NCBI GenBank assembly: GCA_050246315.1
Contig: JBFWWG010000007.1
Location: 128,001 to 192,000, forward strand
Direction of reading: 5' to 3'
From: Nitrospiraceae bacterium
GTDB taxonomy: Bacteria; Nitrospirota; Nitrospiria; Nitrospirales; Nitrospiraceae
Length of the DNA stretch: 64,000 nucleotides
The stretch's first letter is position 1; every line of letters starts with the position of its first letter. A program made the translations under genes and the position numbers. The notes beneath the pieces were generated by a model. That model was not told the origin of the DNA, made no database searches, and saw nothing but the letters and a program-made list of their open reading frames with translations. Below, in pieces: positions 4,470 through 37,627 of the stretch.

Positions 4470-6803
4470 CTAGCTGGCTTCCTTATACCCGCACTCGGCG
4501 TTGACGCAACGCACGGTGGTGGCGTCCTTGCCGACTTTTTCGACGAGAAAGGGAGCGCTGCAACTCGGACACGCCTTCTGAACCGGACGGTCCCAGAGAG
4601 CGTACTCGCATTTGGGATAGCGCGAGCAGGCGTAGAAGACTCGGCCCTTGCGCGTTCGCTTCTGGACAAAATCGCCGTCGCATCCGGGAGCGGGGCATTT
4701 GACTCCGACCGAAAGCGCCCGCGTGGTCTTGCATCCCGGATAGCCGGAACAGGCCAGGAATTTCCCGAAGCGCCCGCTCTTGATGAGCATCGGGCTACCG
4801 CACTTTTCACATTGCTCGCCGGTGGTGACCTCTTCCTTGGGAACAATCTTAATCGTTCCGTCCGGCAAGCGCTCAAAATTCTGGGTGTTTTTGCAAGGCG
4901 GATCTTCATTGTAACCGGGACAAGCCAGAAACTTCCCATTACGTCCCCATTTGATGATCATCATCCGCCCGCAGCGATCGCACGGAATGTTCGTGGGCGG
5001 CTCGACGATATCTTTGGGACCGGGAATCTGCTCCGCGATCTGCATGTCACGCGTAAATGGATTGTAGAAGTCTCGAACCGCGTCCACCCATCCCTTGTTG
5101 CCTTCCTCGACCTCGTCCAGCTCTTGCTCCATTTGAGACGTGAAATCCACGTTGAGCAGCTCCGGAAAGCCTTTCTCCAGAAAATCATTCACCGTCCGGC
5201 CGGTCTCAGTCGGGATGAATCGTCCTTCCACCTTTTCCACATACTTGCGGTCTTGAATCGTGGAGATGATGGCGGCATAGGTTGAAGGCCGACCGATTCC
5301 CTTCTCTTCAAGCTCACGGATCAGCAGTGCCTCGTTGTACCGCGGAGGCGGCTGGGTGAAATGCTGCTTGGGGAGTACTCCGCTCTCAGCACCGTCGCGG
5401 GACACCAACCTGAGCTGCTCACCCTCCTCCAGCCGAGGGAGGTTGCCGTCCGGCGTGTCCTCCGTTTCTTCGCCGCTCTTTTGATTTTGAGGCGGCGCGT
5501 CCGAATCTCTTCCTTCCAGATACACTGCCGTGTGGCCGGGGAACTTCACGACGGTGCCGGTGGCCCGGAAGATGTAGTCGTCCGACACCTCTACAGGCGC
5601 CGTATCCACGCGGGTGACATCCAAAATTGCGGGTGTCATCTGCGAGGCGACGAATCGATTCCAGATCAGCTTGTAGAGCTGGTAGACGTCCGGCTCCAGG
5701 TACTGCCTGATAGACTCGGGATCGCGAACGGCGGAGGTGGGACGGATGGCTTCGTGAGCTTCCTGCGCGGCCTTTTGCGTCTTATACACGTTCGGCGTCG
5801 CCGGCAAATATTCGGGACCGAACCGCTCCCTGATGAGTTCCCGGGCCGCCTCCAATGCTTCCTGGGCGATCCTCGTCGAATCCGTCCTCATATACGTGAT
5901 CAGCCCGACCGGCCCTTCCGCTCCGATTTCGATACCTTCGTACAGTTGTTGGGCCAGCGCCATGGTCTTCTTCGGCGTGAACCGCAACTTACGGGCCGCT
6001 TCCTGCTGGAGCCGGCTGGTAATGAATGGGGCGACCGGATTCCGCCTCTTCTCCTTTCGTTCGATGGAACGGACGACGAAGGACTTTCCCTGTACCGCGG
6101 CAACCACGCGCTCGGCCTCCGGTGCCGAGGAGATCGACGCCTCCTGTCCGTTGATCGAGTGCAACTTGGCGTCGAACGCCGGAGGATTGGCCCCCTGGAG
6201 CGTCGCCGTGATGGACCAGTATTCTTCCGGTCTGAAGGCTTCCCGCTCCTTCTCCCGATCGCAAATAAGCTTGACCGCGACGGATTGGACCCGCCCCATA
6301 CTGAGCCCACGCCGGACCTTCTTCCACAATAGCTGGCTCCCTTGATACCCCACGATCCGATCAAGCACACGGCGAGCCTGCTGGGCGTTCACCAGCTTCA
6401 TGTCGATCTGTCCGGGTGATTGAAGCGCCCGCTTGATCGCCGACTCCGTGATCTCGTTGAACAGCACACGGAAGATCCGCTCGTTGTTCTTCTTCTTGGA
6501 TTTGCCGCTGATTTCCTGTGCGATATGCCAGGCGATCGCCTCCCCTTCCCGATCGGGGTCCGGTGCCAGATACACCTTGTCCACCTGCTCCGCCTTCTTC
6601 TTGATGTCGGACAGAACCTTCGCCTTGCCCTTAATCGTGACGTAGTGCGGGGCAAACTCACGCTCGATATCCACGCCAAGCTTGCTGGTCGGAAGATCCT
6701 TGACGTGACCGACCGAGGCCATGACTGTATACCCCCGCCCCAGGTATTTGTTGATGGTCTTGGCCTTTGCAGGAGACTCAACGATGATTAATGACTTGGC
6801 CAT
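4470..6803 (-). CDS. topA: DNA topoisomerase I (type IA)
   Basis: IVESPAKAKTI, DPDREGEAIA, ITYMRTDS catalytic Tyr, GIGRPSTYA, C-terminal Cys4 zinc ribbons. Confidence 0.99.
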   Translation of the reverse strand: MAKSLIIVESPAKAKTINKYLGRGYTVMASVGHVKDLPTSKLGVDIEREFAPHYVTIKGKAKVLSDIKKKAEQVDKVYLAPDPDREGEAIAWHIAQEISGKSKKKNNERIFRVLFNEITESAIKRALQSPGQIDMKLVNAQQARRVLDRIVGYQGSQLLWKKVRRGLSMGRVQSVAVKLICDREKEREAFRPEEYWSITATLQGANPPAFDAKLHSINGQEASISSAPEAERVVAAVQGKSFVVRSIERKEKRRNPVAPFITSRLQQEAARKLRFTPKKTMALAQQLYEGIEIGAEGPVGLITYMRTDSTRIAQEALEAARELIRERFGPEYLPATPNVYKTQKAAQEAHEAIRPTSAVRDPESIRQYLEPDVYQLYKLIWNRFVASQMTPAILDVTRVDTAPVEVSDDYIFRATGTVVKFPGHTAVYLEGRDSDAPPQNQKSGEETEDTPDGNLPRLEEGEQLRLVSRDGAESGVLPKQHFTQPPPRYNEALLIRELEEKGIGRPSTYAAIISTIQDRKYVEKVEGRFIPTETGRTVNDFLEKGFPELLNVDFTSQMEQELDEVEEGNKGWVDAVRDFYNPFTRDMQIAEQIPGPKDIVEPPTNIPCDRCGRMMIIKWGRNGKFLACPGYNEDPPCKNTQNFERLPDGTIKIVPKEEVTTGEQCEKCGSPMLIKSGRFGKFLACSGYPGCKTTRALSVGVKCPAPGCDGDFVQKRTRKGRVFYACSRYPKCEYALWDRPVQKACPSCSAPFLVEKVGKDATTVRCVNAECGYKEAS

Positions 6804-6933
6804 GCCTATCCTTCATGATCGGCGACGGGCGCTCCGGCCGTCACGGCGACTCTGTCCTTCTCTTCTACTCCATCTTCCATGGTTCTCTCAACTATTCCAG
6901 TGCCATGGACCGGGCCACCGCACAAGCTGCTGA

Positions 6934-8055
6934 TTATAACCGAAGAATAAATTGTCCGGGTAATTGTTCAACGAGGCCCTTCATCTCGAGGGAGAGGAGC
7001 GCGGCCGAAACCGCGGCCGGACCTAGTTGGATGCGGAGCGTGAGTTCATCAATATGCACCGGGTCCGCGGACAACGCCGCGATCACCCGCGATTCATCCG
7101 CCGACAACGGAGAGACCGCCTTTGCCGGCGCGTCGCGTCGCACGGCGAGCCGCCGGCGCATCTGCTCGTCCAACTGAGGGAGCAACTCCTCGATCACGTC
7201 CTGTGCCGTCTCGACGAGCTTGGCGCCATCCTTGATCAGGCGGTGCGGGCCGCGACTGGTCTCGGCTCGAACCGATCCAGGAAGCGCAAATACCTCGCGG
7301 CCTTGTTCTCCAGCCAACCGTGCCGTGATCAACGAGCCGCTGTCCAGCGCAGCCTCCGTCACGAGGACGCCCAAGGAGAGGCCGCTGATGATACGATTCC
7401 GTCGAGGAAAATGGTAGCTGTGCGGAGGAGCGCCCATCGCCAGCTCCGACAGGACCGCCCCCTGCATTTCGATTTGCCGGCGCAACTTCTCATGCTCGGG
7501 CGGATAGGTGTGGTCGATCCCGCAACCTAACACCGCGATCGTGCGCCCTCCGGCTGCCAGCGCTCCACGATGAGCCGCCGCATCGATTCCACGAGCCAAT
7601 CCGCTGACGATGGTGAATCCTGCTTGCGCCAAGGTACGGCTGAGTTCCTCCGTAACTGCGCGGCCCTGCGGGGTGGACCGTCGCGATCCGACAATAGCCA
7701 CTGCATGAACATCGGAAGGGTCCAACCTCCCGGCAACATAGAGCAACGGAGGAGGGTCAGCGATATGGTTGAGTCGCCCCGGGTACTCCGCCTCAAAACA
7801 GGACACCACTGCGACCTGGCTTTGATGAATCAGGCTGATTTCCTGCTCAATCTGTGCCGAGGTCTTGAGATCCACTCCACGGACAATGGCTTCGGCAAGC
7901 TCCTGGTTGCATCCGCGCCTCCGCAATTCTGCGATCGGAGATCGGAGGACGGCTTCAGGCGAGCCGCAGGCTTCGGCCAGTTTCGCCAAGGTCGCTGGTC
8001 CCACACGCTCGATGGCCCGCAAGGTGAGCCAAGCCCGCAACGACTCATCGTTCAC
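6934..8055 (-). CDS. dprA: DNA-processing protein DprA
   Basis: AIVGSR, VSGLARGIDAAAH, FPRRNRIISGLS, GSLITA, C-terminal winged helix; adjacent to topA. Confidence 0.98.
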   Translation of the reverse strand: MNDESLRAWLTLRAIERVGPATLAKLAEACGSPEAVLRSPIAELRRRGCNQELAEAIVRGVDLKTSAQIEQEISLIHQSQVAVVSCFEAEYPGRLNHIADPPPLLYVAGRLDPSDVHAVAIVGSRRSTPQGRAVTEELSRTLAQAGFTIVSGLARGIDAAAHRGALAAGGRTIAVLGCGIDHTYPPEHEKLRRQIEMQGAVLSELAMGAPPHSYHFPRRNRIISGLSLGVLVTEAALDSGSLITARLAGEQGREVFALPGSVRAETSRGPHRLIKDGAKLVETAQDVIEELLPQLDEQMRRRLAVRRDAPAKAVSPLSADESRVIAALSADPVHIDELTLRIQLGPAAVSAALLSLEMKGLVEQLPGQFILRL

Positions 8056-8129
8056 GGCCGAACCTTCGGAGGAGGCGGTGCGGGAACCTGAGCACCTTTC
8101 CGCCCAGCAAAGCCGCCGTGAGAGGCCCC

Positions 8130-9638
8130 TTAGAGCGTCGCGATGTCGAACTGCTCGATGTGCAGGCTGGCATCAGGAGTGACGATGATTTTGCACGAAG
8201 AGACCCGCTCGACTTCTTCCAACCCTTGCCTCTCTTGATCCTGCAGAACATCGGTGACAGCCGGATTAGCGCCAACGACAATGCGCTGGTGGTCCTGCGA
8301 ACGCCCGAGCTTGCGCATTTCCTTGAAAATCTCATAGGCAACGGAGGTCGGCGACTTTGTATAGCCGCGCCCGTCGCAGTAATGGCAGGGCTCCGACATC
8401 GCGCGCAACAGATCCTCACGGACCCGCTCGCGAGAAATTTCGATCAATCCCAGATCGGAGATCCGGGAAATTCTCGTTCTGGCCTTGTCCGCAGACATCG
8501 CGTCAACCAGCGCGTGATACACCTTGTCTCGATTGCGCTCCCGCTCCATGTCGATGAAATCGACGATGATGATGCCACCGATGCCCCGCAACCGCACCTG
8601 ATACGCGATTTCCTTGGCAGCTTCCAGGTTGTTCCGAAGAATCGTCTCCTCCTGATCCCGCTTGCCGACAAACCGGCCGGTATTGACGTCGATCACGGTC
8701 ATGGCTTCCGTATGGTCGATGACGATATGGCCTCCCGATTTCAGCCACACCTTCCGGCTCAGCGCTCGCGCGATTTCCTGTTCGATGCCGAGGTGTTCAA
8801 ACAGCGGATCCTGTTTCTCGTATGACTGAATCCGGGAGGTCAATTCCGGAAGGAAGCGGGTGACGAAATCCCGGATGGCTTCGTATTCCGTCCGGGCGTC
8901 GATCAACAGGCGATCCACCTTCTTCGAGAACATGTCTCGGACAACCCGAAAACTCAAGGACAGGTCCGAATGTATGATCGCAGGGGTCGGCGACTGATCG
9001 CGTTTAGTCAAAATATCCTGCCACAACACATGAAGAAACTCGACATCGGCCCGCAGGTCGTCTTCCTTCACTCCCTCGCTCACCGTCCGCACGATGTAGC
9101 CGCATCCCGGCTTCCGCAGATGTTTCATCATCTCCTTGAGCCGTACACGCTCCTCGTCCTTGGCGATACGACGCGACACGCCGATGTGCTCCACGTTCGG
9201 CATAAACACCAGATACCTCCCGGGAAGCGACACATACCCGGTGACACGCGGCCCCTTGGTGCCAATGGGGCCCTTTGAAATCTGGACCATGATATCCTGC
9301 CCTTCGTCCAGGAGCTGTTCGATCGGCTTCACTCCCTGTCGCTTGGGACGCGGCACCTCCGGCGCCTGATCGTCATCCTCGCTGTCGAACAGCGTATCTC
9401 CGGGCCCCGCATCGCTGCAGACATCCGAAGCATGCATAAACGCCGATTTGTCCAGCCCGAGGTCGATGAACGCCGCCTGCATCCCCGGCAGCACCTTCGC
9501 GACCCGCCCCTTGTAAATGTTCCCGACAAAATCCTTGTGCTTGGCCCGATCGTTAAAGAGATCAGTCACCACACCGTTATCCAGCACCGCGACGCGCGTT
9601 TCCTCCCGCGCCACATTAATGGCAATCTCCAATCCCAT
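8130..9638 (-). CDS. rng: Rne/Rng family ribonuclease (RNase G)
   Basis: GNIYKGRV...PGMQAAFID S1 domain, TEAMTVIDVNTG, GGIIIVDFIDM, CxxC link; 502 aa. Confidence 0.95.
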   Translation of the reverse strand: MGLEIAINVAREETRVAVLDNGVVTDLFNDRAKHKDFVGNIYKGRVAKVLPGMQAAFIDLGLDKSAFMHASDVCSDAGPGDTLFDSEDDDQAPEVPRPKRQGVKPIEQLLDEGQDIMVQISKGPIGTKGPRVTGYVSLPGRYLVFMPNVEHIGVSRRIAKDEERVRLKEMMKHLRKPGCGYIVRTVSEGVKEDDLRADVEFLHVLWQDILTKRDQSPTPAIIHSDLSLSFRVVRDMFSKKVDRLLIDARTEYEAIRDFVTRFLPELTSRIQSYEKQDPLFEHLGIEQEIARALSRKVWLKSGGHIVIDHTEAMTVIDVNTGRFVGKRDQEETILRNNLEAAKEIAYQVRLRGIGGIIIVDFIDMERERNRDKVYHALVDAMSADKARTRISRISDLGLIEISRERVREDLLRAMSEPCHYCDGRGYTKSPTSVAYEIFKEMRKLGRSQDHQRIVVGANPAVTDVLQDQERQGLEEVERVSSCKIIVTPDASLHIEQFDIATL

Positions 9639-9883
9639 AGGTCACGCTCCTCACTAAAGTTTGATGGGCGTCGAGAACCTGCACCCCAGACGGTGCGCTA
9701 TCGACAGGCCATCGAAACACACAAGTCCTGCCATCGCTTCTCGGCCGCACAAGCCGCTCGAATGGAACTTGGAGGCCGCTGCGGTCCGTTGGAGCCACGC
9801 AGCCTCCATTGTAAAGGCTACCGATGCAAAAAGTCCTAACCCGCATGATTCACGAAGCTTCGTGCGATTCCAACCCATGCGGG

Positions 9884-11005
9884 CTAATAGAACAGCGCCA
9901 GCCGGCGTCGTTTCACGTTCAATAACAAGCCCAACGCCGCTAGCGTGGTCACCGTCGCGCTGCCGCCGTAACTGACCAGTGGAAGCGGAATCCCCACGAT
10001 CGGGAACATGCCTGCGGTCATACCGATATTGACAACCATGCAGAAGCACAGCATGGCGACAACCCCAGCCGCCAGGAGCGAGCCCAACAGATCCTTCGCG
10101 CGGAGCGCGATCTCCACCGACAGCAAAATCAAGATCAAGAACAGCGCAAGCAGGACGACGACCCCCGCGAATCCCCATTCCTCCGCAAAGACTGCAAATA
10201 CGAAATCGGTGTGCCCTTCCGGCAGAAATTTGAGCTGGCTTTGGGTCCCGCCGTACAGACCTTTGCCCAACAGCTCTCCTGACCCAATCGCGATCTTGGA
10301 TTGCAAGGCATGATACCCCTTTCCGCCCGGATCGTAGGCCGGATCGACGAACGTCATGATCCGCTGCCGCTGATAGTCGTGCAACGAATTCCACATCACC
10401 TCCCAGGCGAACGGGAAGAGCATGAGCGAAAACAGCAAAATGATCCCGAGCGCCTTGGAACGCATGCCGACCACGAGGAGCATGGCCGCATAGACGGCGA
10501 GGAAACTCAGCCCGCTTCCCAGATCCGGTTGCTTGAGGATCAGCAAGAGCCCGGGAAGCATGATGGCGCCAGGAATCAGCACCCGCTGCATCCAGCCGCT
10601 GCGGGGCGCTGCGGCATAATAGCTCGCCAGCACTAAAATGAGGACCAGCTTTGCGAACTCCGAGGGCTGAAAGGCGAACGGACCGATCGGAATCCAGCGC
10701 TGCGCCCCCCGGCTGCTTTTGCCCATGAACAGGACCACAACGAGCAAGACCAGCACGATCGCATACAGCACATACGAGAGGCGCGCAATCTTGTGATAAT
10801 CGATCGACAGCATCATCATGAATGCGACGGCCCCGAGCCCGATCCAGATGATTTGTTTGAGATAGATCGGCAAACCAGCCCCAGGCTGGATGTAGGTCAC
10901 GCTGTAGATCGACAACACCCCGATGGCGAGCACGGCACCGATCACGCCGACGAATTGCCAGTCGAAAGGATCGAACCGCCGTTCGTCGATCATGCGGGAT
11001 ATCAT
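9884..11005 (-). CDS. rodA: Rod shape-determining protein RodA
   Basis: GAQRWI, FQPSEFAK, QPDLG, LPEGHTDFVF, PLVSYGGS; ATGA overlap with the mrdA stop at 11002-11005. Confidence 0.97.
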   Translation of the reverse strand: MISRMIDERRFDPFDWQFVGVIGAVLAIGVLSIYSVTYIQPGAGLPIYLKQIIWIGLGAVAFMMMLSIDYHKIARLSYVLYAIVLVLLVVVLFMGKSSRGAQRWIPIGPFAFQPSEFAKLVLILVLASYYAAAPRSGWMQRVLIPGAIMLPGLLLILKQPDLGSGLSFLAVYAAMLLVVGMRSKALGIILLFSLMLFPFAWEVMWNSLHDYQRQRIMTFVDPAYDPGGKGYHALQSKIAIGSGELLGKGLYGGTQSQLKFLPEGHTDFVFAVFAEEWGFAGVVVLLALFLILILLSVEIALRAKDLLGSLLAAGVVAMLCFCMVVNIGMTAGMFPIVGIPLPLVSYGGSATVTTLAALGLLLNVKRRRLALFY

Positions 11006-12891
11006 AAACGAGGCCCCGACGTCTGCGCGCTCCTCTGTTCCTGGGGCGGCACGCCTCCTCCGATCACGACCGGAGCCTTTGGCGCCATGGTGAAGAACGC
11101 TTCGATCAACTCCTTGGCCAGGGGCGCGGCAGCCGAGCCTCCATGGCCCATATGCTCGGCCAGAACCGCGACGGCTATTTTGGGAGACTCCGCCGGCGCA
11201 TAGGACACGAACCAAGCGTGGTCTCGGAATTTCTTGGGAATGTCTTTCTCAGGTCCTGTGCGGAGCGCGGTTGTCTGGGCGGTTCCGGTCTTCCCCGCGA
11301 TGTTCACGAGCGAGGACTTGGCGCGCGTCGCCGTTCCCCGACTGACGACATCGGTCAGGCCCTTCTGAATCGCCTGCAGCGTCTCCGCCTTCACGGCTAA
11401 GGTTTCTTTGGCCGGGGTCGGCATCTCCTGCAATCGCCCAGTGGTCCGATCGAGAACGGCTTGAATCAACCGAGGTCGATACAGAATACCGTTATTGGCG
11501 ACCGCCCCCACCACACTCGCCATCTGAAGAGGGGTGACCGTCACGTATCCCTGCCCGATGGCCACCGAGATCGTTTCGCCGGGATACCAGGGCTCACCCC
11601 TCACCCGCTCCTTCCAGGCGGTAGATGGCACGATTCCGACCCGCTCCGATGGCAGTTCGATGCCGGTTTCCCGCCCCAAGCCGAACATGCGAGCGAACTG
11701 GGCAATGGTGTCAATTCCCATCCGCTGTCCCACCGTATAGAAATACACGTCGCACGAATGCACGATGGCCTCATGCAAATCGACCGATCCATGCCCGCCC
11801 GCTTTCCAATCACGGAAGAGCCGTTTTCCGAACTGGTACCCCCCGTTGCAGAACACGGGCGTGGCAGCCGACACCGTGCGGCTTTCGAGCGCCGCCGCGG
11901 CCATCACAATCTTAAAGGTCGATCCTGGAGGATACTGCCCTTGAATAGCCCGGTTGGTCAGCGGCCGGCGCTCGTTCTGGACGATCTCTTCCCACTGCTT
12001 GGCCGTCAATTCACGCGACATGAGGTTCGGGTCAAACGCCGGACGGCTGGCCAGCGCCAAGACTTCTCCGCTTGTCGGATCGAGCGCCACGATCGCCCCG
12101 TCTTCTTCGCCCAAGAGCTGCTCAGCCAGTTTTTGCAATCGAGCATCGATCGTCAAATAGAGATCATCGCCCGAATGCGGCTTGTCCACAAACACCGTCC
12201 GTTTCGCATGGCCCAGCGCATCGACCTCGACACTCTTTTCGCCAGATCGCCCCCGGAGCAGCCGATCGAATGTTTTTTCGACCCCGTACTGTCCGATCAA
12301 GCTCCCTTGATGCAGATCGTCCGCATCTTCCCGCTCCAACTGTTCCGCCGACACCTCCCCCACATAGCCGATCAAGTGTCCCCCCACGACTCCTTCGGGG
12401 TAGTTCCGCTGTGATTCCACCTGGATCATCACTCCCGGCAGTTGCAGCCGGTGCGATTCGACCAACGTGGCCTCTCTGAGAGTAAGACGATCCTTGACCT
12501 TGCGGGGAAGCAGCTTGGGTCCCTTGACGGACAGCTTCTTTTCAATCACCTGCGGCTCAAGGCCGATCAACAGACTTAATCGCGCGGCCAACTCGACCCG
12601 GTCCTTGACATCCTCAAGCGTGACGTACAGGGTGAAGCTGGGAACGTTATTGGCCAACAGGACTCCGTTGCGGTCATAGATGAGGCCGCGAGCCGGTTCG
12701 AGCAGCACGGTTCGGGTTCGATTGTTCTCTGAGAGGTCGCGGTAATAGACCCCGTCGCGCACTTGGAGATACCACAGGCGGACCCCGAGCAGGACCACGA
12801 CCAACAACAGCCCTATGCGCAGGATCATCAGCCGCCGCTGAATTTCACCCAATTCCGCGTCGGACGTACCGTAACCCATGGTGAGTCCCAT
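11002..12891 (-). CDS. mrdA: Penicillin-binding protein 2
   Basis: N-terminal TM, ARGLIYDRNG, SxxK (PGSTFK), SCDVYFY, KTGTAQ. Confidence 0.98.
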   Translation of the reverse strand: MGLTMGYGTSDAELGEIQRRLMILRIGLLLVVVLLGVRLWYLQVRDGVYYRDLSENNRTRTVLLEPARGLIYDRNGVLLANNVPSFTLYVTLEDVKDRVELAARLSLLIGLEPQVIEKKLSVKGPKLLPRKVKDRLTLREATLVESHRLQLPGVMIQVESQRNYPEGVVGGHLIGYVGEVSAEQLEREDADDLHQGSLIGQYGVEKTFDRLLRGRSGEKSVEVDALGHAKRTVFVDKPHSGDDLYLTIDARLQKLAEQLLGEEDGAIVALDPTSGEVLALASRPAFDPNLMSRELTAKQWEEIVQNERRPLTNRAIQGQYPPGSTFKIVMAAAALESRTVSAATPVFCNGGYQFGKRLFRDWKAGGHGSVDLHEAIVHSCDVYFYTVGQRMGIDTIAQFARMFGLGRETGIELPSERVGIVPSTAWKERVRGEPWYPGETISVAIGQGYVTVTPLQMASVVGAVANNGILYRPRLIQAVLDRTTGRLQEMPTPAKETLAVKAETLQAIQKGLTDVVSRGTATRAKSSLVNIAGKTGTAQTTALRTGPEKDIPKKFRDHAWFVSYAPAESPKIAVAVLAEHMGHGGSAAAPLAKELIEAFFTMAPKAPVVIGGGVPPQEQRSAQTSGPRL

Positions 12892-31000: not shown

Positions 31001-31324
31001 ATGGCCTCCGAAAAGAAAGAACTGCTGATCTTCAGCCGCACGGGATGTCACCTCTGCGACGTGGTGGAAAAGATGGCTCGTCGTTTACAGAATGACCTTC
31101 ACCTGGAGATCTCCAAGCGCAATGTCGAGGAAGATGCCGCCCTCCTTCGGCGCTATGGCGACCGGATTCCGGTGGTGGTGCTGGATCGGGTTGAAGTTTG
31201 TAGTGGACCGATCACTCAACCGGCGCTGCGAGCAGCCATCGCGCAGGCCGGGAAGAAGGCGCGTTGGAGAAAGCCTATAAGCCGGATTCTGTCCCGCCTG
31301 AGTGAAGCACTCAGCCGGGGATGA
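31001..31324 (+). CDS. Glutaredoxin-like protein (DUF836-like)
   Basis: FSRTGCHLCD CxxC and RYGDRIPVV cis-Pro motif; the 3' end overlaps rnpB antisense. Confidence 0.85.
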   Translation: MASEKKELLIFSRTGCHLCDVVEKMARRLQNDLHLEISKRNVEEDAALLRRYGDRIPVVVLDRVEVCSGPITQPALRAAIAQAGKKARWRKPISRILSRLSEALSRG

Positions 31325-31669
31325 TCATTTCTCTGGGATGCGGGTTGCCCCGCACCTCAAGCGACCTACCCGAGGACCTCGGCCGGGCCAGCCTTGCGGC
31401 ACTCAAGGTGCCTCGTCCCCCTATTTGGCCTTGCTCCGGGCGACGCTTACCGTGCCGTTGATGTCGCCACCAACGCGGTGAGCTCTTACCTCACCGTTTC
31501 ACCCTTACCTGATCTGTACGAACGATCGCACAGCCATCGGCGGTTTGATTTCTGTGGCGCCGGTGTCGGATCGCTCCGCCTGGGTGTTACCCAGCGCCCT
31601 GCCCCTGGAGTCCGGACTTTCCTCCGGTGAGCTTGCGCTCCCCAGCGATCACCCGGCTTTCTTCAACGC
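31261..31669 (-). ncRNA. rnpB: RNase P RNA (type A)
   Basis: Minus strand has GAGGAAAGTCCGGACTCC, GGGTGAAACGGTGAGGTAAGAGCTCACC and ACAGAATCCGGCTTATAG; the P1 ends GCGTTGAAGAAAGCC / GGCTTTCTCCAACGC pair. Confidence 0.98.
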
Positions 31670-31706: not shown

Positions 31707-31737
31707 ACAACGGCGGCCCGAGACCGCCGGCGTCTAT

Positions 31738-34700
31738 TTAGAATCGCGGCAACTTGAAAAATGACGCTTCGGCCTTATTCTGGATCTCGTTCAGCTCCTC
31801 CTCTGGAAGCCTCGCCAAGACCGGTGCCAGTCGTTTGAGTTCTTCGACCGTCATGGTGCAGGCCTCACATCGCCCCATATAGACCGTACCATCATCGCTG
31901 GCCGAGAGGATCCATTTGCCGTCGGGACTGAACTCCACGGAGTTTACCCCTTCACTGTGCCGACGCAACACAGCAAGCTGTTTGGTTGTCGTCGCATCCC
32001 AGACACGAAGCGTGTTATCCACACCACCCGTCACTACCCAGTTGCCATCCCTACTGAATGAGGCGGCGGCCAACCCGGCGCTATGGCCTCCACCAAGTAC
32101 CTTCGACGGACCAGCCCGTTCCAATGGCCAAATCCTTGCCGTCTTATCGGCGCTCGCTGTCAACAACCATTTACTGTCAGGGCTGAACTCGAGAGATTTG
32201 ATCTGGCCGTTATGCCCCTGAAGGTCCCTTATGCGAACACGCAGGTTGGTCCTTTCAAAGAGCTCCACGTTTTTGTTTTTTTCATTGAGCGCGGCGATCC
32301 ACTTTCCATCCGGGCTGATCGCAGCCAGCCAGCGTCCAGATTCCTCCTCAGACGCAAGCCGGGGTTGAAGAGGACCCTCGACCCTCAAGGTTTTCGTCTC
32401 CCAGATAGAAATCTGTCCGCTTCGGCTGACGGTGACGAGCTCGTCACTTCCTGAACTGAACGCCGCCGTCAGCATGGAGGTGAGCCACCCTGGAGTGATC
32501 GTTCGATTCGATGTGACGTCCCACAGAATGGGTTTCGTCCTCGGATCGAGGCCCCCGTCAGCCCCGACACCAAGAAGATATTTTCCATCTCTGCTCCACG
32601 ACAAAGACCACAATTGGTCCCTATCGACACCATGCAGCTCCCGTGATTCGGCCGCTTTTTCATCGCCGACATTCGTCAATCCAACCATGACGGCTCTCCC
32701 CTGTTCCTCACCAACGGCCACGCGCGTTCCATGGGGATCGAATCTAGCGTGAAGCGCCCATCGCTCTGAAGCCTCAAGCAGGCTGGGCGCACGGAAATGC
32801 CAAATACGCACCATCCCATCCGCTCCAGCGCTCACGACATGCCGTCCGTCCGGACTGAATACGGCATGAGTGACTGCGTCTTGATGCCCGCGCAACACGG
32901 CAATCGAGGTCCCAGATCTGGTCGACCAGATCCGTGCCGTATTGTCGTTACTCGCCGTCACGAGCCATTTTCCGTCAGTCGAGGCATTGGCATCGTTTAC
33001 CCAATCATCATGTGCCCGCCGCTGTTTCGGATTCATGGTGGCATCTACCCATAGTTGGGTAACCTTTCCCGAGACCGTAATCAGCGGGCGGCTCTCGCCT
33101 GAATCGGGAGCAAACTTGGCAGCAATGACAGGATGCTTGTGCTTGAGAGGCCACCTGTTCGGCACAGGCTTCGCGAGTTGTCGGCGCTCTAAATCCAACT
33201 GCCACACAATGGCCTGGCTATCGTCCCCTGCCGTCACCAATAAGCCCGCATCTGCCCGATGAAATTCGATATCACGGATGGAGTAGTATCGTTCATGCGT
33301 AATTGGCGAATCGTTTCCCTTTGGGCTTTCTCTGGCAATCCAAACACCGGGATGACCCAGCTTCCAGATATTCACGGTCCCGATGGCATCACCGCTCGCC
33401 AAGTACGTACTATCGTGTGAGAATGCCAGCGCGGTCACCGTCACAGGTTTCGTCACTTTGTGCGTGTAGGCATCCGGTTTCGAGGACGGGTCGCTTAGGT
33501 CCCACACCAAGACTTCTCCGTCGTAGCAGCCGATGGCGACGTACTTATCATCCGGACTGACCCCAATCGTATAGACTCGGTTGTGTTCGCCCTCGCAAGT
33601 CATCAGACGGACGGATGGATCGTCGATCCGCTGGACTTGTGCTTGACCATCTTCCGTCTGTGTGACGAGAGTCCTATTCTTCTCGATCAACCAGGCGCGC
33701 TGGATTGCTTCCTTTCTTTGGATAGGCACCCGTCGTGGGCTATAGGTACTGGAATCGTAAACTGCGAGGTTTTTCCCGCTCGCGATCAGCAGAAGGGTTC
33801 CATCAGAACTGTAGCGCACATCCGCAATCGGCTCCCCAATCTGGAGAATTCTTTCCGTGTGGGCGGTTTCAAGCATCGCGACTGACTGCCGTAGCGCATT
33901 CACGCCAAGCTCATTGCTGGGATCAACCGCCAACGCCGCCATGGCAAGATGAGCACTCCGGGCTGGATCCTGATCAATTGCCTGAATGGCTTCGGATGCG
34001 AGGGCACGCGATTGCGCCATACTGGTTCGACTGTTCGAGAAGACTATCCACGCAATTCCCGCTACTCCCACGATTCCAATCAGGAGACCGAATATTCCCA
34101 ACTGTCGACGAACTCGGCGCGCTCTGTGCCGTTCCTCACCCGCCTTGCTGATGACCGGCACGAGTCGATCATGGATCAGTTCGATCCGGGCCGTATCGGA
34201 ATGTTGCACCACCCGGAGGAGTCGATGGGTATCTGTCAGAACCTTGATCTGACGCTCAGTCAGAAGCCCGTTTTGCAAGGCTCCCTCCACTGGATAGTCG
34301 CCTCGAAAACGATCGCCTTGGATCAGATTGTCCTCGATAAAGGTCGCCACATCCGGCGGGCCATTGATCGCGGGATCATTCAACGCCGTTTGATAAAACG
34401 TCTCCAGGATGTCCTGTCCGACCGTTTCCACCAACTCACGATCGATTTTAGAATCCGGAGCACGGCGACGGTTGAGTTCGGAGCAACACAGGCTCAGCAG
34501 CACGGGCTCGATGGTCAGGTTCTCCGTGCCGCGAGCACAGAAGTCGTCATCCTGCCTCCCGACCAAGTCCACGATGCGCGCGGCCACTCCCGCTTCCAAC
34601 ACTACCGCCCCAGCACGTTCCACAGCCTGTATCGCCGTGCCAGGCGTCATGGCCTGGAGGTGAAGACAGTGGCGGAGAAGGGACGGCACCTGATGCTCCC

Positions 34701-35397
34701 AATCCTTCATCTGCGGCAGAAAATCCTCTCGGAAGGACAGGATGACCCGATAGCGATGCGACATGAGATCGAGCAAGCCGCGCTTGGTGCCGTCCGACTC
34801 GTCGAGCGACTTCGGGATGGTGTTTGCCACCAGGTCCGCAAGATCTTGGAAGGTCTCCTGTGTGCGACCCGGACCGCCGGCCCCCTTCGAGAACAATTCC
34901 TCGAATTGATCGAACACGAAGACAGGGCTCATGAGGAAATTGTCTGCTCCCCAAAACTCCAAATCACGTCGATGGAGGTATTCCCAGAGTGTTTCATCCA
35001 TGGGCATTGGCGGAAACTCTGCTCCCGCCCTTTCCAGCTCGGCTTGCAGAATCGCCTTGACCTGGTTGAGCACCGGCTCCGCTCCCGTGCTCAACAACGT
35101 CAATCGGACGTAGATGGGCAAGAAGCGTTCACTGCGAGGCAAGACAAGTTCCCTCCGTAGCAGGGGAAACAATCCGGCCTTGAGCAGTGAGGTCTTTCCC
35201 AGCCCGGATTTGCCATAGAGAACCGTCAGCGGTGATTGACACACCAACCGCAGAAGCGTGGCGGATTCCTCCTGGCGTCCACAAAAGTATTCTTGAGATG
35301 TTTCGTCGTAGGCTGCCAAGCCAGGCCACGGCTGTTGCGGATTCAGCATCGAGGCAGCCGGTAAGGTCTCGATGGGAGGGCTGCATTGAACGCTCAC
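31738..35397 (-). CDS. nSTAND1-type NTPase - transmembrane helix - WD40 repeat protein
   Basis: PWPGL..Y......FCGR..E, Walker A GKSGLGKTS, Walker B FVFDQFEELF, SFREDF, ELIHD, TM LGIFGLLIGIVGVAGIAWIVF, then many GH...FSPDG...TAS.D.TARIW repeats. The GTG start overlaps the upstream stop (GTGA) after GGAGG. Confidence 0.92.
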   Translation of the reverse strand: MSVQCSPPIETLPAASMLNPQQPWPGLAAYDETSQEYFCGRQEESATLLRLVCQSPLTVLYGKSGLGKTSLLKAGLFPLLRRELVLPRSERFLPIYVRLTLLSTGAEPVLNQVKAILQAELERAGAEFPPMPMDETLWEYLHRRDLEFWGADNFLMSPVFVFDQFEELFSKGAGGPGRTQETFQDLADLVANTIPKSLDESDGTKRGLLDLMSHRYRVILSFREDFLPQMKDWEHQVPSLLRHCLHLQAMTPGTAIQAVERAGAVVLEAGVAARIVDLVGRQDDDFCARGTENLTIEPVLLSLCCSELNRRRAPDSKIDRELVETVGQDILETFYQTALNDPAINGPPDVATFIEDNLIQGDRFRGDYPVEGALQNGLLTERQIKVLTDTHRLLRVVQHSDTARIELIHDRLVPVISKAGEERHRARRVRRQLGIFGLLIGIVGVAGIAWIVFSNSRTSMAQSRALASEAIQAIDQDPARSAHLAMAALAVDPSNELGVNALRQSVAMLETAHTERILQIGEPIADVRYSSDGTLLLIASGKNLAVYDSSTYSPRRVPIQRKEAIQRAWLIEKNRTLVTQTEDGQAQVQRIDDPSVRLMTCEGEHNRVYTIGVSPDDKYVAIGCYDGEVLVWDLSDPSSKPDAYTHKVTKPVTVTALAFSHDSTYLASGDAIGTVNIWKLGHPGVWIARESPKGNDSPITHERYYSIRDIEFHRADAGLLVTAGDDSQAIVWQLDLERRQLAKPVPNRWPLKHKHPVIAAKFAPDSGESRPLITVSGKVTQLWVDATMNPKQRRAHDDWVNDANASTDGKWLVTASNDNTARIWSTRSGTSIAVLRGHQDAVTHAVFSPDGRHVVSAGADGMVRIWHFRAPSLLEASERWALHARFDPHGTRVAVGEEQGRAVMVGLTNVGDEKAAESRELHGVDRDQLWSLSWSRDGKYLLGVGADGGLDPRTKPILWDVTSNRTITPGWLTSMLTAAFSSGSDELVTVSRSGQISIWETKTLRVEGPLQPRLASEEESGRWLAAISPDGKWIAALNEKNKNVELFERTNLRVRIRDLQGHNGQIKSLEFSPDSKWLLTASADKTARIWPLERAGPSKVLGGGHSAGLAAASFSRDGNWVVTGGVDNTLRVWDATTTKQLAVLRRHSEGVNSVEFSPDGKWILSASDDGTVYMGRCEACTMTVEELKRLAPVLARLPEEELNEIQNKAEASFFKLPRF

Positions 35398-36794
35398 AGC
35401 ATCGCCTCCTTCCGACGAGCCGCTCGGATGAGTATCTGCAACCGTGCGATCGTACGAGCATCGGGTTGGCCGTCCGGAGCGTGCCCGAAATCCAGGCGTT
35501 CCTTCCACACACGGACGGGCCAGTCAGGCGCCTGGCTGACACAGTAGCGCTCAGGGCTGTACTCCTGATCCACAATCATCGGCACAACGAATTCTCGGTT
35601 CATATCCTTGAACCGCTCGTTCGCCCTACGCCATTCCCTGAATACAAACGCCTCCTCTCGGTTTCCTGCGGAGGATGAGAGCAATGGCATGAAATAGCGA
35701 CAACCTTGGATTCCATCCAAGATACGTTGCTGGTAGTCTTGCGCCGGCTCGATGCTATCTCGGTCGAACCACACCTCTTCCTTCGACACGCCCAACTTCT
35801 GCAACGCGTTGACGACCGCTTCTGCTCGCGGCAGATCGGTTCGACGAGAGTAGCTGACGAAGAACATGGTACGTGGCGGAGGACCATTCCTCTCGGATGC
35901 TCCAGAAGCCGCGGGTGACGCCCCGTGTTCCGCTCTCCACCGCTGGTTCAATTCCTCCACAAAGGCGCCCGGCTCCATTTGAGATAGCACCTCGGTATCT
36001 CGGCTATAGCTCGCCAAGAACAGCGTCAGGCTCTCTCCGGGCTGCAACTGCTCGATCAGCCACTCCCGCTTGCTCCGCTCCCGCGACAGACGGTCTTTGT
36101 TGGTAATGCGGAGGAAGAAGCGACTCAGCCAATCCGGGAAGCGACAGCCAACAAACAGAAGATTGCGAGCCTGGAGTTCACCCAAGAAGGCCATAGGCAC
36201 ATTGCTGCCGCGGGCGATCATATTGTGGGCGTACTCGAGAACATCCTCTTCATGAATCGCGAACACAGGCAGACGTTGGCATTTTCCGAAGAGGTAGAGG
36301 AGGTAGGTCTCGCCTACACGCGTCTGCCAATCAGAGGGAAGGTCATTCACCCCGCTACGCACTCCAAGATTGGGGGAATGGATAATCTCCTGAACAGAAC
36401 AACGCTTTCTTAAACAGCGGGCCAGCATGCCGTCGGGCGTGGCGGTCACCAGTAAGCGAAAACTGGAAATTTCAGCGAGTTGTTGAATGGGCTTGGGGAT
36501 CGATGCCTCGTCTCGAGTCAGCTCATCGACGACCTCATTGACCATTTCGTATAGCTCCTGTAGCCGGATCTGTGGGTCCCGAATGAGGTGATTCACCAAA
36601 CCACTGAGCCCCAGCCCTGCACGGCAGAGCGCCGCGCCATTTTCGACCCCACATCTGCTGCCTACCATCTCAGCAAACCTGGCCTGCAAGTCGCCTCCCG
36701 TAATCGGGTCAATCAGCAACTGCGATCCGAGGACTGGAACGACCACACCGTCATTGATTTGACCGAGCAATCGTTTCCACTTTAGGTCATCCAT
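35394..36794 (-). CDS. SIR2-like (degenerate) + C-terminal TIR domain protein
   Basis: N-terminal SIR2_2-like pattern (VVPVLG, LVTATPD, YLFG, LLFVGC.FPDWL.R). C-terminal TIR_2 pattern FFVSYSR, VWFDR..IEP..D, I.GCRYFMPLLS, FREW..A. Confidence 0.85.
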   Translation of the reverse strand: MDDLKWKRLLGQINDGVVVPVLGSQLLIDPITGGDLQARFAEMVGSRCGVENGAALCRAGLGLSGLVNHLIRDPQIRLQELYEMVNEVVDELTRDEASIPKPIQQLAEISSFRLLVTATPDGMLARCLRKRCSVQEIIHSPNLGVRSGVNDLPSDWQTRVGETYLLYLFGKCQRLPVFAIHEEDVLEYAHNMIARGSNVPMAFLGELQARNLLFVGCRFPDWLSRFFLRITNKDRLSRERSKREWLIEQLQPGESLTLFLASYSRDTEVLSQMEPGAFVEELNQRWRAEHGASPAASGASERNGPPPRTMFFVSYSRRTDLPRAEAVVNALQKLGVSKEEVWFDRDSIEPAQDYQQRILDGIQGCRYFMPLLSSSAGNREEAFVFREWRRANERFKDMNREFVVPMIVDQEYSPERYCVSQAPDWPVRVWKERLDFGHAPDGQPDARTIARLQILIRAARRKEAML

Positions 36795-37627
36795 GGCACG
36801 CCCCTTCAACTCAGTCCAGCCCTCAGTGGCCCGTCATCCTTCCAGTATTGAACCTGACGTTTACCGCGTCGCCGATCTTCTCGAACCGAAGACTGGCGGT
36901 ACCCAGAGGTTCTGCGCCAGCCCCGGACAAGAGGGTGCATCGCGACTGCTGATCATGTCTTCTCGAGCATTCTCCAACTCACTTCCACCTTCTGTCTCAA
37001 TAGCTGTCGATGAGATAGCCTTCTTTAAGCTGAGCGACGGTAGCTCTATCTGCCGATGAGCTTGCCTCTCTCTCCTCCCGTCAGGGTTGCCACCAGTCTT
37101 GGAAAGGTAACGTAAGGTTGGCACGGACTCACGATGGAGATACGGAGCCCGGAGCCACATGCCGTCGAGAATCATCTCCGTCATACAAGCACCTGATGGG
37201 GACAGGAATCGGTCAAATGGCGTTTGATCTTCCATGAATAAAATGACGGCCTACGAGCAGATGAAGTACGCAGCGGGACTCGGATGCGGTCACAGGAACA
37301 GTGAGCCAAAGAGGCAAAGGGCTTGCCGCTCACTTCCAACGGGAGGACCCTACGCTTTTCGCGGAGATGGCACAATCCTCCCGGCGCGGGAGAGTGGTGA
37401 TGTATCTGATTAGATACGTTCTTGATCGGAAACGATACAGAGGCCGGTGCACTGCGGGAAATGACTCTCGGGATCAATCGGGGACAATGCGTGAAGGCGT
37501 ACAGCTTACGTGACCCTCTTACCGTGGCGTAGGTAAAAGCTCAGGTCGAACGGTCGCGAACCGCCGGGATCGAGCCATTGAGCAGCTCGATGGTTGGGTG
37601 GACTGAAGGTGATCTTGCGGAAAAGAA

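Follow-up and report, generated by a model that had tools for sequence, protein, structure and literature searches.

Within a 64,000-nt stretch of the genome of a Nitrospiraceae bacterium (assembly GCA_050246315.1, contig JBFWWG010000007.1, positions 128,001 to 192,000; hereafter the window, whose positions serve for all coordinates given without a contig or locus name), two co-oriented genes on the minus strand at 36794-35394 (gene 1) and 35397-31738 (gene 2) encode a TIR protein and a predicted membrane protein built on an NTPase of the signal transduction ATPases with numerous domains (STAND) type. On balance, we think it probable that this pair is a horizontally acquired conflict or immunity module of two genes, similar in kind to the nucleotide-binding leucine-rich repeat (NLR) receptors, that spans the inner membrane. 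The topology of the pair, the binding of its two proteins to one another, their enzymatic output and their biological role are those that we infer from the comparisons set out below.

Gene 1 (35394..36794, minus strand) encodes a protein of 466 amino acids (aa) from an ATG, which is predicted to be cytoplasmic and to combine a SIR2 fold with a TIR domain; an upstream TTG at 36809 offers an alternative start that is unlikely because homologues begin at the ATG. The 1219-aa product of gene 2 (31738..35397, minus strand), which starts from a GTG with an alternative ATG at 35346, 17 codons in, carries an nSTAND1 NTPase, one transmembrane (TM) helix and WD40 repeats. The two open reading frames (ORFs) are joined by a GTGA stop/start overlap (35394..35397, minus strand), in which the start GTG of gene 2 (35397-35395) shares letters with the stop TGA of gene 1 (35396-35394), and a GGAGG ribosome-binding site is located at 35405..35409 on the same strand, 7 nt before the GTG. 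This arrangement had been pointed out in a preliminary description of the window made from its sequence, and direct reading of the letters bears it out.

The pairing is conserved well beyond the window. We scored 8000 candidates and identified 460 homologues of gene 1 at E <= 0.001; the top 120 share 51-100% identity with it (at most 77% outside the window's own cluster) and, in all but one case, align over at least 94% of the query. At E <= 1e-30, a profile of the SIR2-like domain recovered 667 cluster representatives (clusters at 50% identity). When one genome was scanned for each species, 250 pattern matches and 238 confirmed relatives were obtained, and the best 80 loci were kept for comparison. 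A homologue of the gene 2 STAND module was found directly downstream and on the same strand in 80/80 of these loci, two of the homologues (L009 and L047) being broken, and the pairing first described in the window therefore holds throughout this survey of homologue neighbourhoods. Candidate starts of gene 2, which are to be read as candidates only, fall in the same 4-nt overlap in 30/80 loci and 3 nt after the stop in 14 more (44/80 together). Furthermore, pairwise distances for gene 1 correlate with those for the STAND module across 71 full-coverage pairs (r = 0.884; reached in 0/999 permutations), a correlation that reflects co-inheritance and is by itself not proof of binding. Complex prediction for the STAND module with gene 1 gave scores of 0.52, 0.48 and 0.52 and one control gave 0.39, which argues neither for nor against binding. 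From these comparisons, the pair is a conserved and co-inherited unit that is probably translationally coupled.

The preliminary description assigned gene 1 a SIR2-like N-terminal domain and a C-terminal TIR domain, and both assignments stand. Residues 311-414 match the Pfam family TIR_2 (PF13676) with 53.9 bits against a cut-off of 28, and together with a structure-profile search this match delimits a TIR domain of about residues 306-445 (35460..35879, minus strand). When compared with solved structures, the family profile matches TIR-APAZ and bacterial TIR proteins, as does the C-terminal part of an AlphaFold model of gene 1 (mean pLDDT, the predicted local distance difference test, of 72) in a Foldseek search. 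Glu387 of the window protein aligns with Glu77 of TIR-APAZ, which we take to be the catalytic residue, and is kept in 71/71 members of the gene 1 family, so that the catalytic glutamate is retained. The N-terminal part of the same model has ThsA, KomC, Avs5 and DSR2 as its top Foldseek matches, some of the matched structures being titled as His mutants (DSR2 H171A, KomBC H146N). We refer to this part (residues 1-295; 35910..36794, minus strand; delimited by Foldseek and hhalign) as the pseudo-SIR2 domain. Its match to SIR2_2 (PF13289) at residues 149-248 scores 21.8 bits, which is under the cut-off of 24.5, and exactly 24.5 in a six-frame search; a profile search of the SIR2-like domain alone against solved structures returned only parvalbumin noise at E >= 0.1, and a scan of the pair against NCBIfam returned only sub-threshold FxsC_Nterm and hydrazine_beta matches.

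The positions that we take to be catalytic in SIR2 proteins were read from an hhalign alignment of the domain with canonical SIR2_2 proteins of the window genome and its relatives (94.3% probability, 222 columns). In the gene 1 family, the canonical TTNYD motif becomes VTxTPD, with the Asn replaced at Thr119, LHG becomes LFG, with the His replaced at Phe169, and GAG becomes G-x-Q/R, with Gln or Arg in place of the second Gly. Across the 71 members, the Asn position is occupied by Thr in 67, Ser in 2 and Met in 2, and the His position by Phe in 70 and Leu in 1. Because the catalytic Asn and His are missing from every member, the domain is not expected to be a nicotinamide adenine dinucleotide (NAD+) hydrolase, and because it is nonetheless highly conserved, for example in HEEDVLEYAHN and GCxFPDW, it would have a function other than that of a SIR2 NADase. 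As judged from these alignments, the TIR domain is the only intact enzyme domain of gene 1 and the SIR2-fold part is catalytically dead; it is to the TIR domain that we attribute a predicted cleavage of NAD+. These results bear directly on the interpretation put forward in the preliminary description, namely that the SIR2-like and TIR domains are both active effectors that consume NAD+ and are provided in trans to a sensor in the cytoplasm, with the former acting as an enzyme of the Thoeris or DSR kind. The presence of a SIR2 fold and a TIR domain within one protein speaks for such an arrangement, as does an intact SIR2 protein coupled to another nSTAND1 protein in the same genome, but the replacement of Asn and His in all 71 members, the loss of the second Gly of GAG and a score for the window protein under the SIR2_2 gathering threshold make it highly improbable.

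The coupled SIR2 protein in question belongs to one of the other nSTAND1 loci of the window genome, which has five nSTAND1 ORFs above the cut-off. On contig C3 (L105; G000 contig C3:243500-252500, 5787..1432, minus strand), the first gene of a second GTGA-coupled pair encodes a canonical SIR2_2 protein of 295 aa (89.2 bits) that retains TSNYD and KMHG; the second encodes a protein of 639 aa, in which nSTAND1 (9-367) precedes a hydrophobic helix (380-398) and then an FGE-sulfatase domain (420-634), and a reverse transcriptase gene follows. By its domains, this pair is a retroelement-diversified STAND-lectin system with SIR2 in trans; the retroelement-diversified STAND-lectin type is described by Kaur et al. 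2021 (PMC8195603) and Doré et al. 2024. The N-terminal domain of gene 1 is 21% identical to the C3 SIR2 protein over 235 residues (E = 3e-7), and the gene 2 STAND module is 23% identical to that of the C3 pair (E = 5e-9). We read this likeness as supporting the SIR2 fold as a cognate partner of membrane nSTAND1 proteins, with catalysis apparently lost and a TIR domain added in the gene 1 family. The window genome (L090, G000 contig C2) and a relative of the same order (L082, G031) also have in common large ORFs, of about 1280-1296 aa, whose N-terminal domain is a canonical SIR2_2.

The product of gene 2 begins about 20 residues before its NTPase and has no N-terminal effector. The nSTAND1 module spans residues 18-432 (34102..35346, minus strand), as defined by Pfam and an alignment of 25 homologues; it matches nSTAND1 (PF20703) at residues 23-282 with 92.3 bits against a cut-off of 27.1, a match also found in 18/18 homologues scanned, and across 24 aligned loci it is 42-58% identical to the window. 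The motifs PWPGL (position 23), GKSGLGKTS (Walker A, 62), DQFEE (Walker B, 163) and ELIHD (406) are invariant or nearly so in the 25 aligned sequences; ELIHD, whose conserved His lies in the C-terminal helical or winged-helix part, is presumably an MHD-type motif. Behind the module are a single TM helix (residues 433-453; 34039..34101, minus strand; mean Kyte-Doolittle hydropathy 2.6), preceded by an Arg-rich stretch, and a WD40 beta-propeller region of about residues 580-1185 (31843..33660, minus strand), which matches Pfam WD40 with 230.7 bits as well as many beta-propeller families. The layout proposed earlier, an nSTAND1-TM-WD40 protein lacking a fused effector, is thus confirmed by Pfam, motifs and hydropathy.

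With a 19-residue segment of hydropathy >= 1.6 within 130 residues after ELIHD as the criterion, a TM segment was found at this place in 69/78 gene 2 homologues, with a mean net charge of +3.3 in the 15 residues before it and +0.7 after it. By the positive-inside rule, these flank charges would place the NTPase in the cytoplasm and the tail outside. The tail itself is exchangeable: among 78 proteins (three further loci are fragmentary), the constant STAND-TM core carries at least eight C-terminal classes, comprising WD40 repeats in 50/78, the window included, a small LytR_C-like domain in 9/78 (with a Pfam hit in L019), a small domain with conserved Cys near both ends in 9/78, another short domain in 5/78, TPR repeats in 2/78, and a kinase with seven hydrophobic segments, a trypsin domain and a TIR domain in 1/78 each. 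In the kinase form (L044:8395-11910, plus strand), a Ser/Thr kinase and seven hydrophobic segments come after the STAND module in place of helix and sensor. On a FastTree tree of the concatenated constant parts, tail class changes at least 8 times, and sister Nitrospira loci differ in it (TPR in L020, WD40 in L028). By the changes of phylum label on this tree, the pair crosses phyla at least 5 times. Given a conserved helix and the exchange of what follows it for domains of extracytoplasmic type, the sensor is probably periplasmic, and in the window it would be the WD40 region that faces the periplasm. The preliminary description had recognised the helix, whose presence holds, and had missed the consequence for topology that follows from the basic flank and the swapped tails. 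Two methanotroph loci, in which gene 2 is of the short LytR_C-like form, also encode, directly upstream of the pair, a protein with an N-terminal TIR domain, one hydrophobic helix and 13 WD40 repeats (L048:4303-6954 and L060:3230-6010, both plus strand), which has the same predicted inside/outside layout without STAND.

An alternative view of gene 2 is that it forms part of a cytoplasmic NLR-like defence system that is merely tethered to the membrane, the helix serving to anchor or dimerise the protein and the WD40 region sensing a phage protein inside the cell, as in Avs and bacterial NACHT (bNACHT) systems. Consistent with this view, a survey of STAND clades (PMC13581612) describes a cytoplasmic location for the WD40 and TPR sensors of the STAND proteins that have been studied, the helix is missing in some members, such as those with TPR (L010) and TIR (L078) tails, and in L003 the pair has a fused TIR-nSTAND1-WD40 protein as a neighbour. 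A lone helix flanked by basic residues on its N-terminal side, however, puts the two ends of the protein on opposite sides of the membrane, and the NTPase has to reach nucleotide in the cytoplasm; in variants, the domains behind the helix are of LytR_C-like, Cys-pair and trypsin type, and Doré et al. 2024 predict periplasm-facing sensors for some STAND-type targets. Given these points, we regard a tethered cytoplasmic sensor as quite unlikely.

Evidence for horizontal acquisition comes from the locus itself, which the preliminary description correctly placed among core genes beside rnpB. The rnpB gene (31262-31664, minus strand; 286 bits) lies just downstream of gene 2, and the core-gene neighbours are ilvB/N/C, psd, pssA and leuA on one side and genes for an M48 peptidase, RNase HII, rpoD and dnaG on the other. 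In the same-genus genome G002, the sequences flanking window positions 31741-37409 are contiguous (query 1-2741 and 8411-10401 map adjacently), and the junction alignment reveals an exact empty site. Because the flanks are contiguous there, the pair is a 5.67-kb insertion beside rnpB. The inserted segment (31733..37414) has imperfect direct repeats of 10 nt at its two ends, TCTATTTAGA (31733-31742) and TCTGATTAGA (37405-37414), and gene 1 was found in 0/40 relatives of the window genome, three of them of the same genus. Genomes of the genus differ in what they carry between rnpB and the M48 peptidase gene: G002 has the empty site, and G001 and G003 have a different insert of 2.67 kb that contains a pair of paralogous ORFs (390 and 465 aa). 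Between the gene 2 stop and rnpB, an inverted repeat rich in GC is followed by a T-rich run (31711-31729); it predates the insertion, since it falls within the part shared with the empty site of G002. The insertion also holds a 124-aa ORF (36861..37235, minus strand) whose only match is one of 24 residues to a RoxA-like cytochrome c. Since none of the 80 related loci has a homologue of it, we rejected this ORF as a third component of the module; most probably, it is a gene fragment carried in with the insertion.

Some relatives of the pair are linked to genes that hint at its output. Systems that couple TPR-S (PF20308) to TIR were reportedly defined by Burroughs and Aravind in 2020 in J Bacteriol. 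By clustering of flanking ORFs, Pfam and a local hidden Markov model (HMM), we found TPR-S genes within 7 kb of the pair in 18/80 loci, mostly co-oriented with it, and the partners of TPR-S in these 18 loci are patatin or CHAT, either fused or adjacent. The order TPR-S, gene 1, gene 2, patatin forms four-gene rows in L019, L020 and L028; a TPR-S-patatin fusion lies just downstream of the pair in L049, L052, L056 and L060; and giant CHAT-hydrolase-TPR-S proteins are encoded in L018, L034 and L056. The window genome has a TPR-S gene of its own at a separate locus (L104; G000 contig C11:129000-148000, minus strand, about 12557..6200), in a row that encodes a DUF4062-TPR protein of 631 aa, TPR-S (664), patatin (373) and TIR_2 (294), and this TPR-S protein aligns over its entire length, at 34% identity, with its counterpart next to the pair in Nitrospira L020. 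A Bacillus TIR/TPR pair (BcTir/Tpr) is reported to protect against phage (preprint 10.1101/2023.05.26.542521). As far as gene linkage is a guide, the TPR-S and patatin genes suggest a TIR signalling route.

We propose the following mechanism for the pair as a membrane-spanning module. The cytoplasmic nSTAND1 NTPase, the one helix across the inner membrane and the periplasmic WD40 propellers would together constitute the switch and sensor, and gene 1 would be the cytoplasmic output, its TIR domain active and its SIR2-fold part serving as an adaptor or regulatory module. The propellers would bind a ligand in the envelope, which could be part of a phage, a competitor's toxin or envelope damage, whereupon the STAND module would exchange nucleotide and oligomerise in the plane of the membrane. 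The oligomer would gather the gene 1 protein via the pseudo-SIR2 domain, and the clustered TIR domains would form active sites and cleave NAD+, leading to its depletion or to a signal derived from ADP-ribose. Linked TPR-S effectors with patatin or CHAT, where present, would be activated by that signal or by the complex, whereas in the window genome, in which the module stands alone, it would act via loss of NAD+ or via an unlinked effector.

This scheme can be extended by analogy with animal proteins. Toll-like receptors (TLRs) have a sensor outside, one TM helix and a TIR domain inside, and APAF-1 is a WD40-STAND switch that recruits a separate effector. The likeness of the pair to these proteins is one of layout only: the pair has no leucine-rich-repeat ectodomain, its TIR domain is on a second protein, and it has no CARD-type adaptor. 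On a bolder reading, the receptor would merge the topology of a TLR with the switch of an NLR, its swappable ectodomains (the propellers or at least seven others) sensing a threat before or during its crossing of the envelope, a dead-SIR2 adaptor docking the TIR domain, and the TIR product firing TPR-S-coupled phospholipase or caspase-like effectors. The presumed ancestral state would be that of the C3 pair, with an active SIR2 protein, an nSTAND1-TM-lectin protein and a diversity-generating reverse transcriptase. We put this extended version forward tentatively and think it somewhat more doubtful than credible.

A number of observations weigh against the immunity module proposed here. The topology is read from a hydropathy rule, the helix is absent in L032 as well as in L010 and L078, and the hydrophobic segments of L044 occur only further downstream. 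Many invariant polar residues are kept in the pseudo-SIR2 domain of the 71 members, and the domain may have a ligand-binding or other catalytic role. TPR-S is absent from 62/80 loci and from the window insertion, and the TPR-S protein of the window genome was considered as the missing effector and rejected, its operon having TIR and patatin genes of its own; cross-talk between the pair and TPR-S is speculative because that operon has its own TIR. All 42 pattern matches among viral contigs proved not to be true relatives, and 72,556 plasmid records contained a single relative, on a replicon of 2.5 Mb. PADLOC 2.0 assigned the pair to no system model and returned only PDC-S68 (E = 0.004) and a repeat-driven HEAT-ARM_XIII match; on 129 flanking ORFs of 23 diverse loci (L050, L063 and L066, with 22 ORFs, were left out of 26 selected), it gave 8 matches, all generic, to a kinase, sigma-54 activator, DinG-like helicase, exonuclease, HTH, ankyrin and trypsin. 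There are no recognisable defence islands around the related loci, and the pair is an isolated insertion. In RNA-library contigs from 4 runs of 3 studies (sludge or metagenome), most of both genes is present with 0-2 differences, at a depth of about 2-11 against about 1e5 for rnpB that may reflect carry-over of DNA. No RNA contigs bridging the gene junction were counted, record 29 of X18 having 21 letters on one side, and these data hint weakly at low transcription of the pair. Finally, a search of the literature found no experimental work on any member of the pair.

The lack of island context and the absence of the pair from viral contigs and near absence from plasmids favour a different trigger, in which the pair is not directed at phage and is instead a signalling or regulated cell-death device of aggregate-forming bacteria that senses envelope stress, contact with kin or non-kin, or competitors in the periplasm and responds through NAD+. 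The hosts are in keeping with this, as the pair is found in Nitrosomonas, Nitrospira, Accumulibacter, methanotrophs and Acidobacteriota and the stretch is present in runs labelled as wastewater, sludge and bioreactor metagenomes, and such systems are tied to a multicellular habit in work by Kaur et al. (2020/2021). Patchy horizontal spread and rapid swapping of sensors are, on the other hand, typical of conflict genes, and TIR and its patatin or CHAT partners are death effectors; moreover, the mechanism overlaps with that of the immunity module and only the trigger differs. We consider a device of this kind unlikely, if a serious contender.

Compared with characterised systems, the pair combines familiar parts in a different arrangement. 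Like Avs and bNACHT proteins, it has a STAND NTPase with a C-terminal repeat sensor, in which ligand-induced oligomerisation is expected to activate an effector, and Avs5, whose structure is among the fold matches of gene 1, has a SIR2 effector; unlike them, it matches no PADLOC model, its effector is a separate protein, its SIR2-like part is degenerate and a TM helix stands between NTPase and sensor. ThsA of Thoeris (SIR2-SLOG) is the best whole-length fold match of gene 1, and the TIR domain is closest in sequence to TIR-APAZ, as found in SPARTA; by analogy with these systems, TIR-based NAD+ chemistry would be switched on by assembly. In Thoeris, ThsA is accompanied by a separate TIR protein, ThsB, and in SPARTA TIR-APAZ by a short pAgo. 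The pair differs from both in carrying the SIR2 fold and TIR on one chain, in the loss of Asn and His, in having neither SLOG nor Argonaute and in its STAND activator, and the Ths models in PADLOC gave no match for it. It resembles TIR/TPR-S systems in that TPR-S with patatin or CHAT is found beside the pair in the 18 linked loci, whereas the window insertion holds two genes and a fragment and no TPR-S gene.

The preliminary description did not recognise the pairing as a characterised system, and its novelty has to be qualified. The nSTAND1 clade was named by Kaur, Iyer, Burroughs and Aravind (eLife 2021, PMC8195603), whose Figure 2-source data 1 has 461 occurrences of 'nSTAND1+TM' and 103 of 'TIR+DrHyd'. 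Many rows, which come from Bacteroidetes, Verrucomicrobia, Planctomycetes, Acidobacteria and Proteobacteria, take the form 'TIR+DrHyd -> nSTAND1+TM+BetaPropeller'; none of the 8 mentions of 'SIR2' in these data is in this arrangement. Such rows resemble the window in NTPase clade, in the nSTAND1+TM+beta-propeller layout and in the co-oriented two-domain TIR gene directly upstream, and differ from it in that the upstream gene is labelled TIR+DrHyd, not SIR2-like+TIR. Gene 1 has no match to DUF4062, which corresponds to the DrHyd of Kaur et al. as judged from the source-data rows. One row, that of Thauera sp. 2A1, was compared with our locus L024, which comes from a record of that name, and could not be equated with it, the lengths disagreeing (1225 aa in the row, 1237 or 1240 aa for the ORF). 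From domain order, the rows are probably of the same operon type as the pair, and their upstream gene may belong to the gene 1 family. The pair is thus probably catalogued in the source data of Kaur et al. and absent from the main text, and it is in print at most as an unnamed type of row. Term searches of the same paper found no discussion of SIR2 catalytic loss or of the topology; the passages of the nSTAND1 literature examined do not describe the pair; a 2026 survey of STAND clades (PMC13581612) mentions WD40 sensors, and a term search of its main text did not find the pair; and nothing was found in the literature on SIR2-TIR combined with STAND. Collectively, the observations of the preliminary description hold, and its interpretation holds in part: the coupled unit, the lack of a fused effector and the TIR glutamate are retained, the SIR2 activity is not, and no island context was found.

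In the NLR-like bacterial proteins studied so far, phage proteins are sensed inside the cell. A conserved family with a membrane helix set between the STAND switch and its sensor would carry this logic of immunity to the envelope and would offer a tractable two-gene model of transmembrane signalling by STAND oligomerisation. The dead SIR2 domain, as its alignments are read here, appears to be a clear case of an effector turned adaptor. The family is large and is common in the nitrifiers, methanotrophs and polyphosphate accumulators of wastewater systems.

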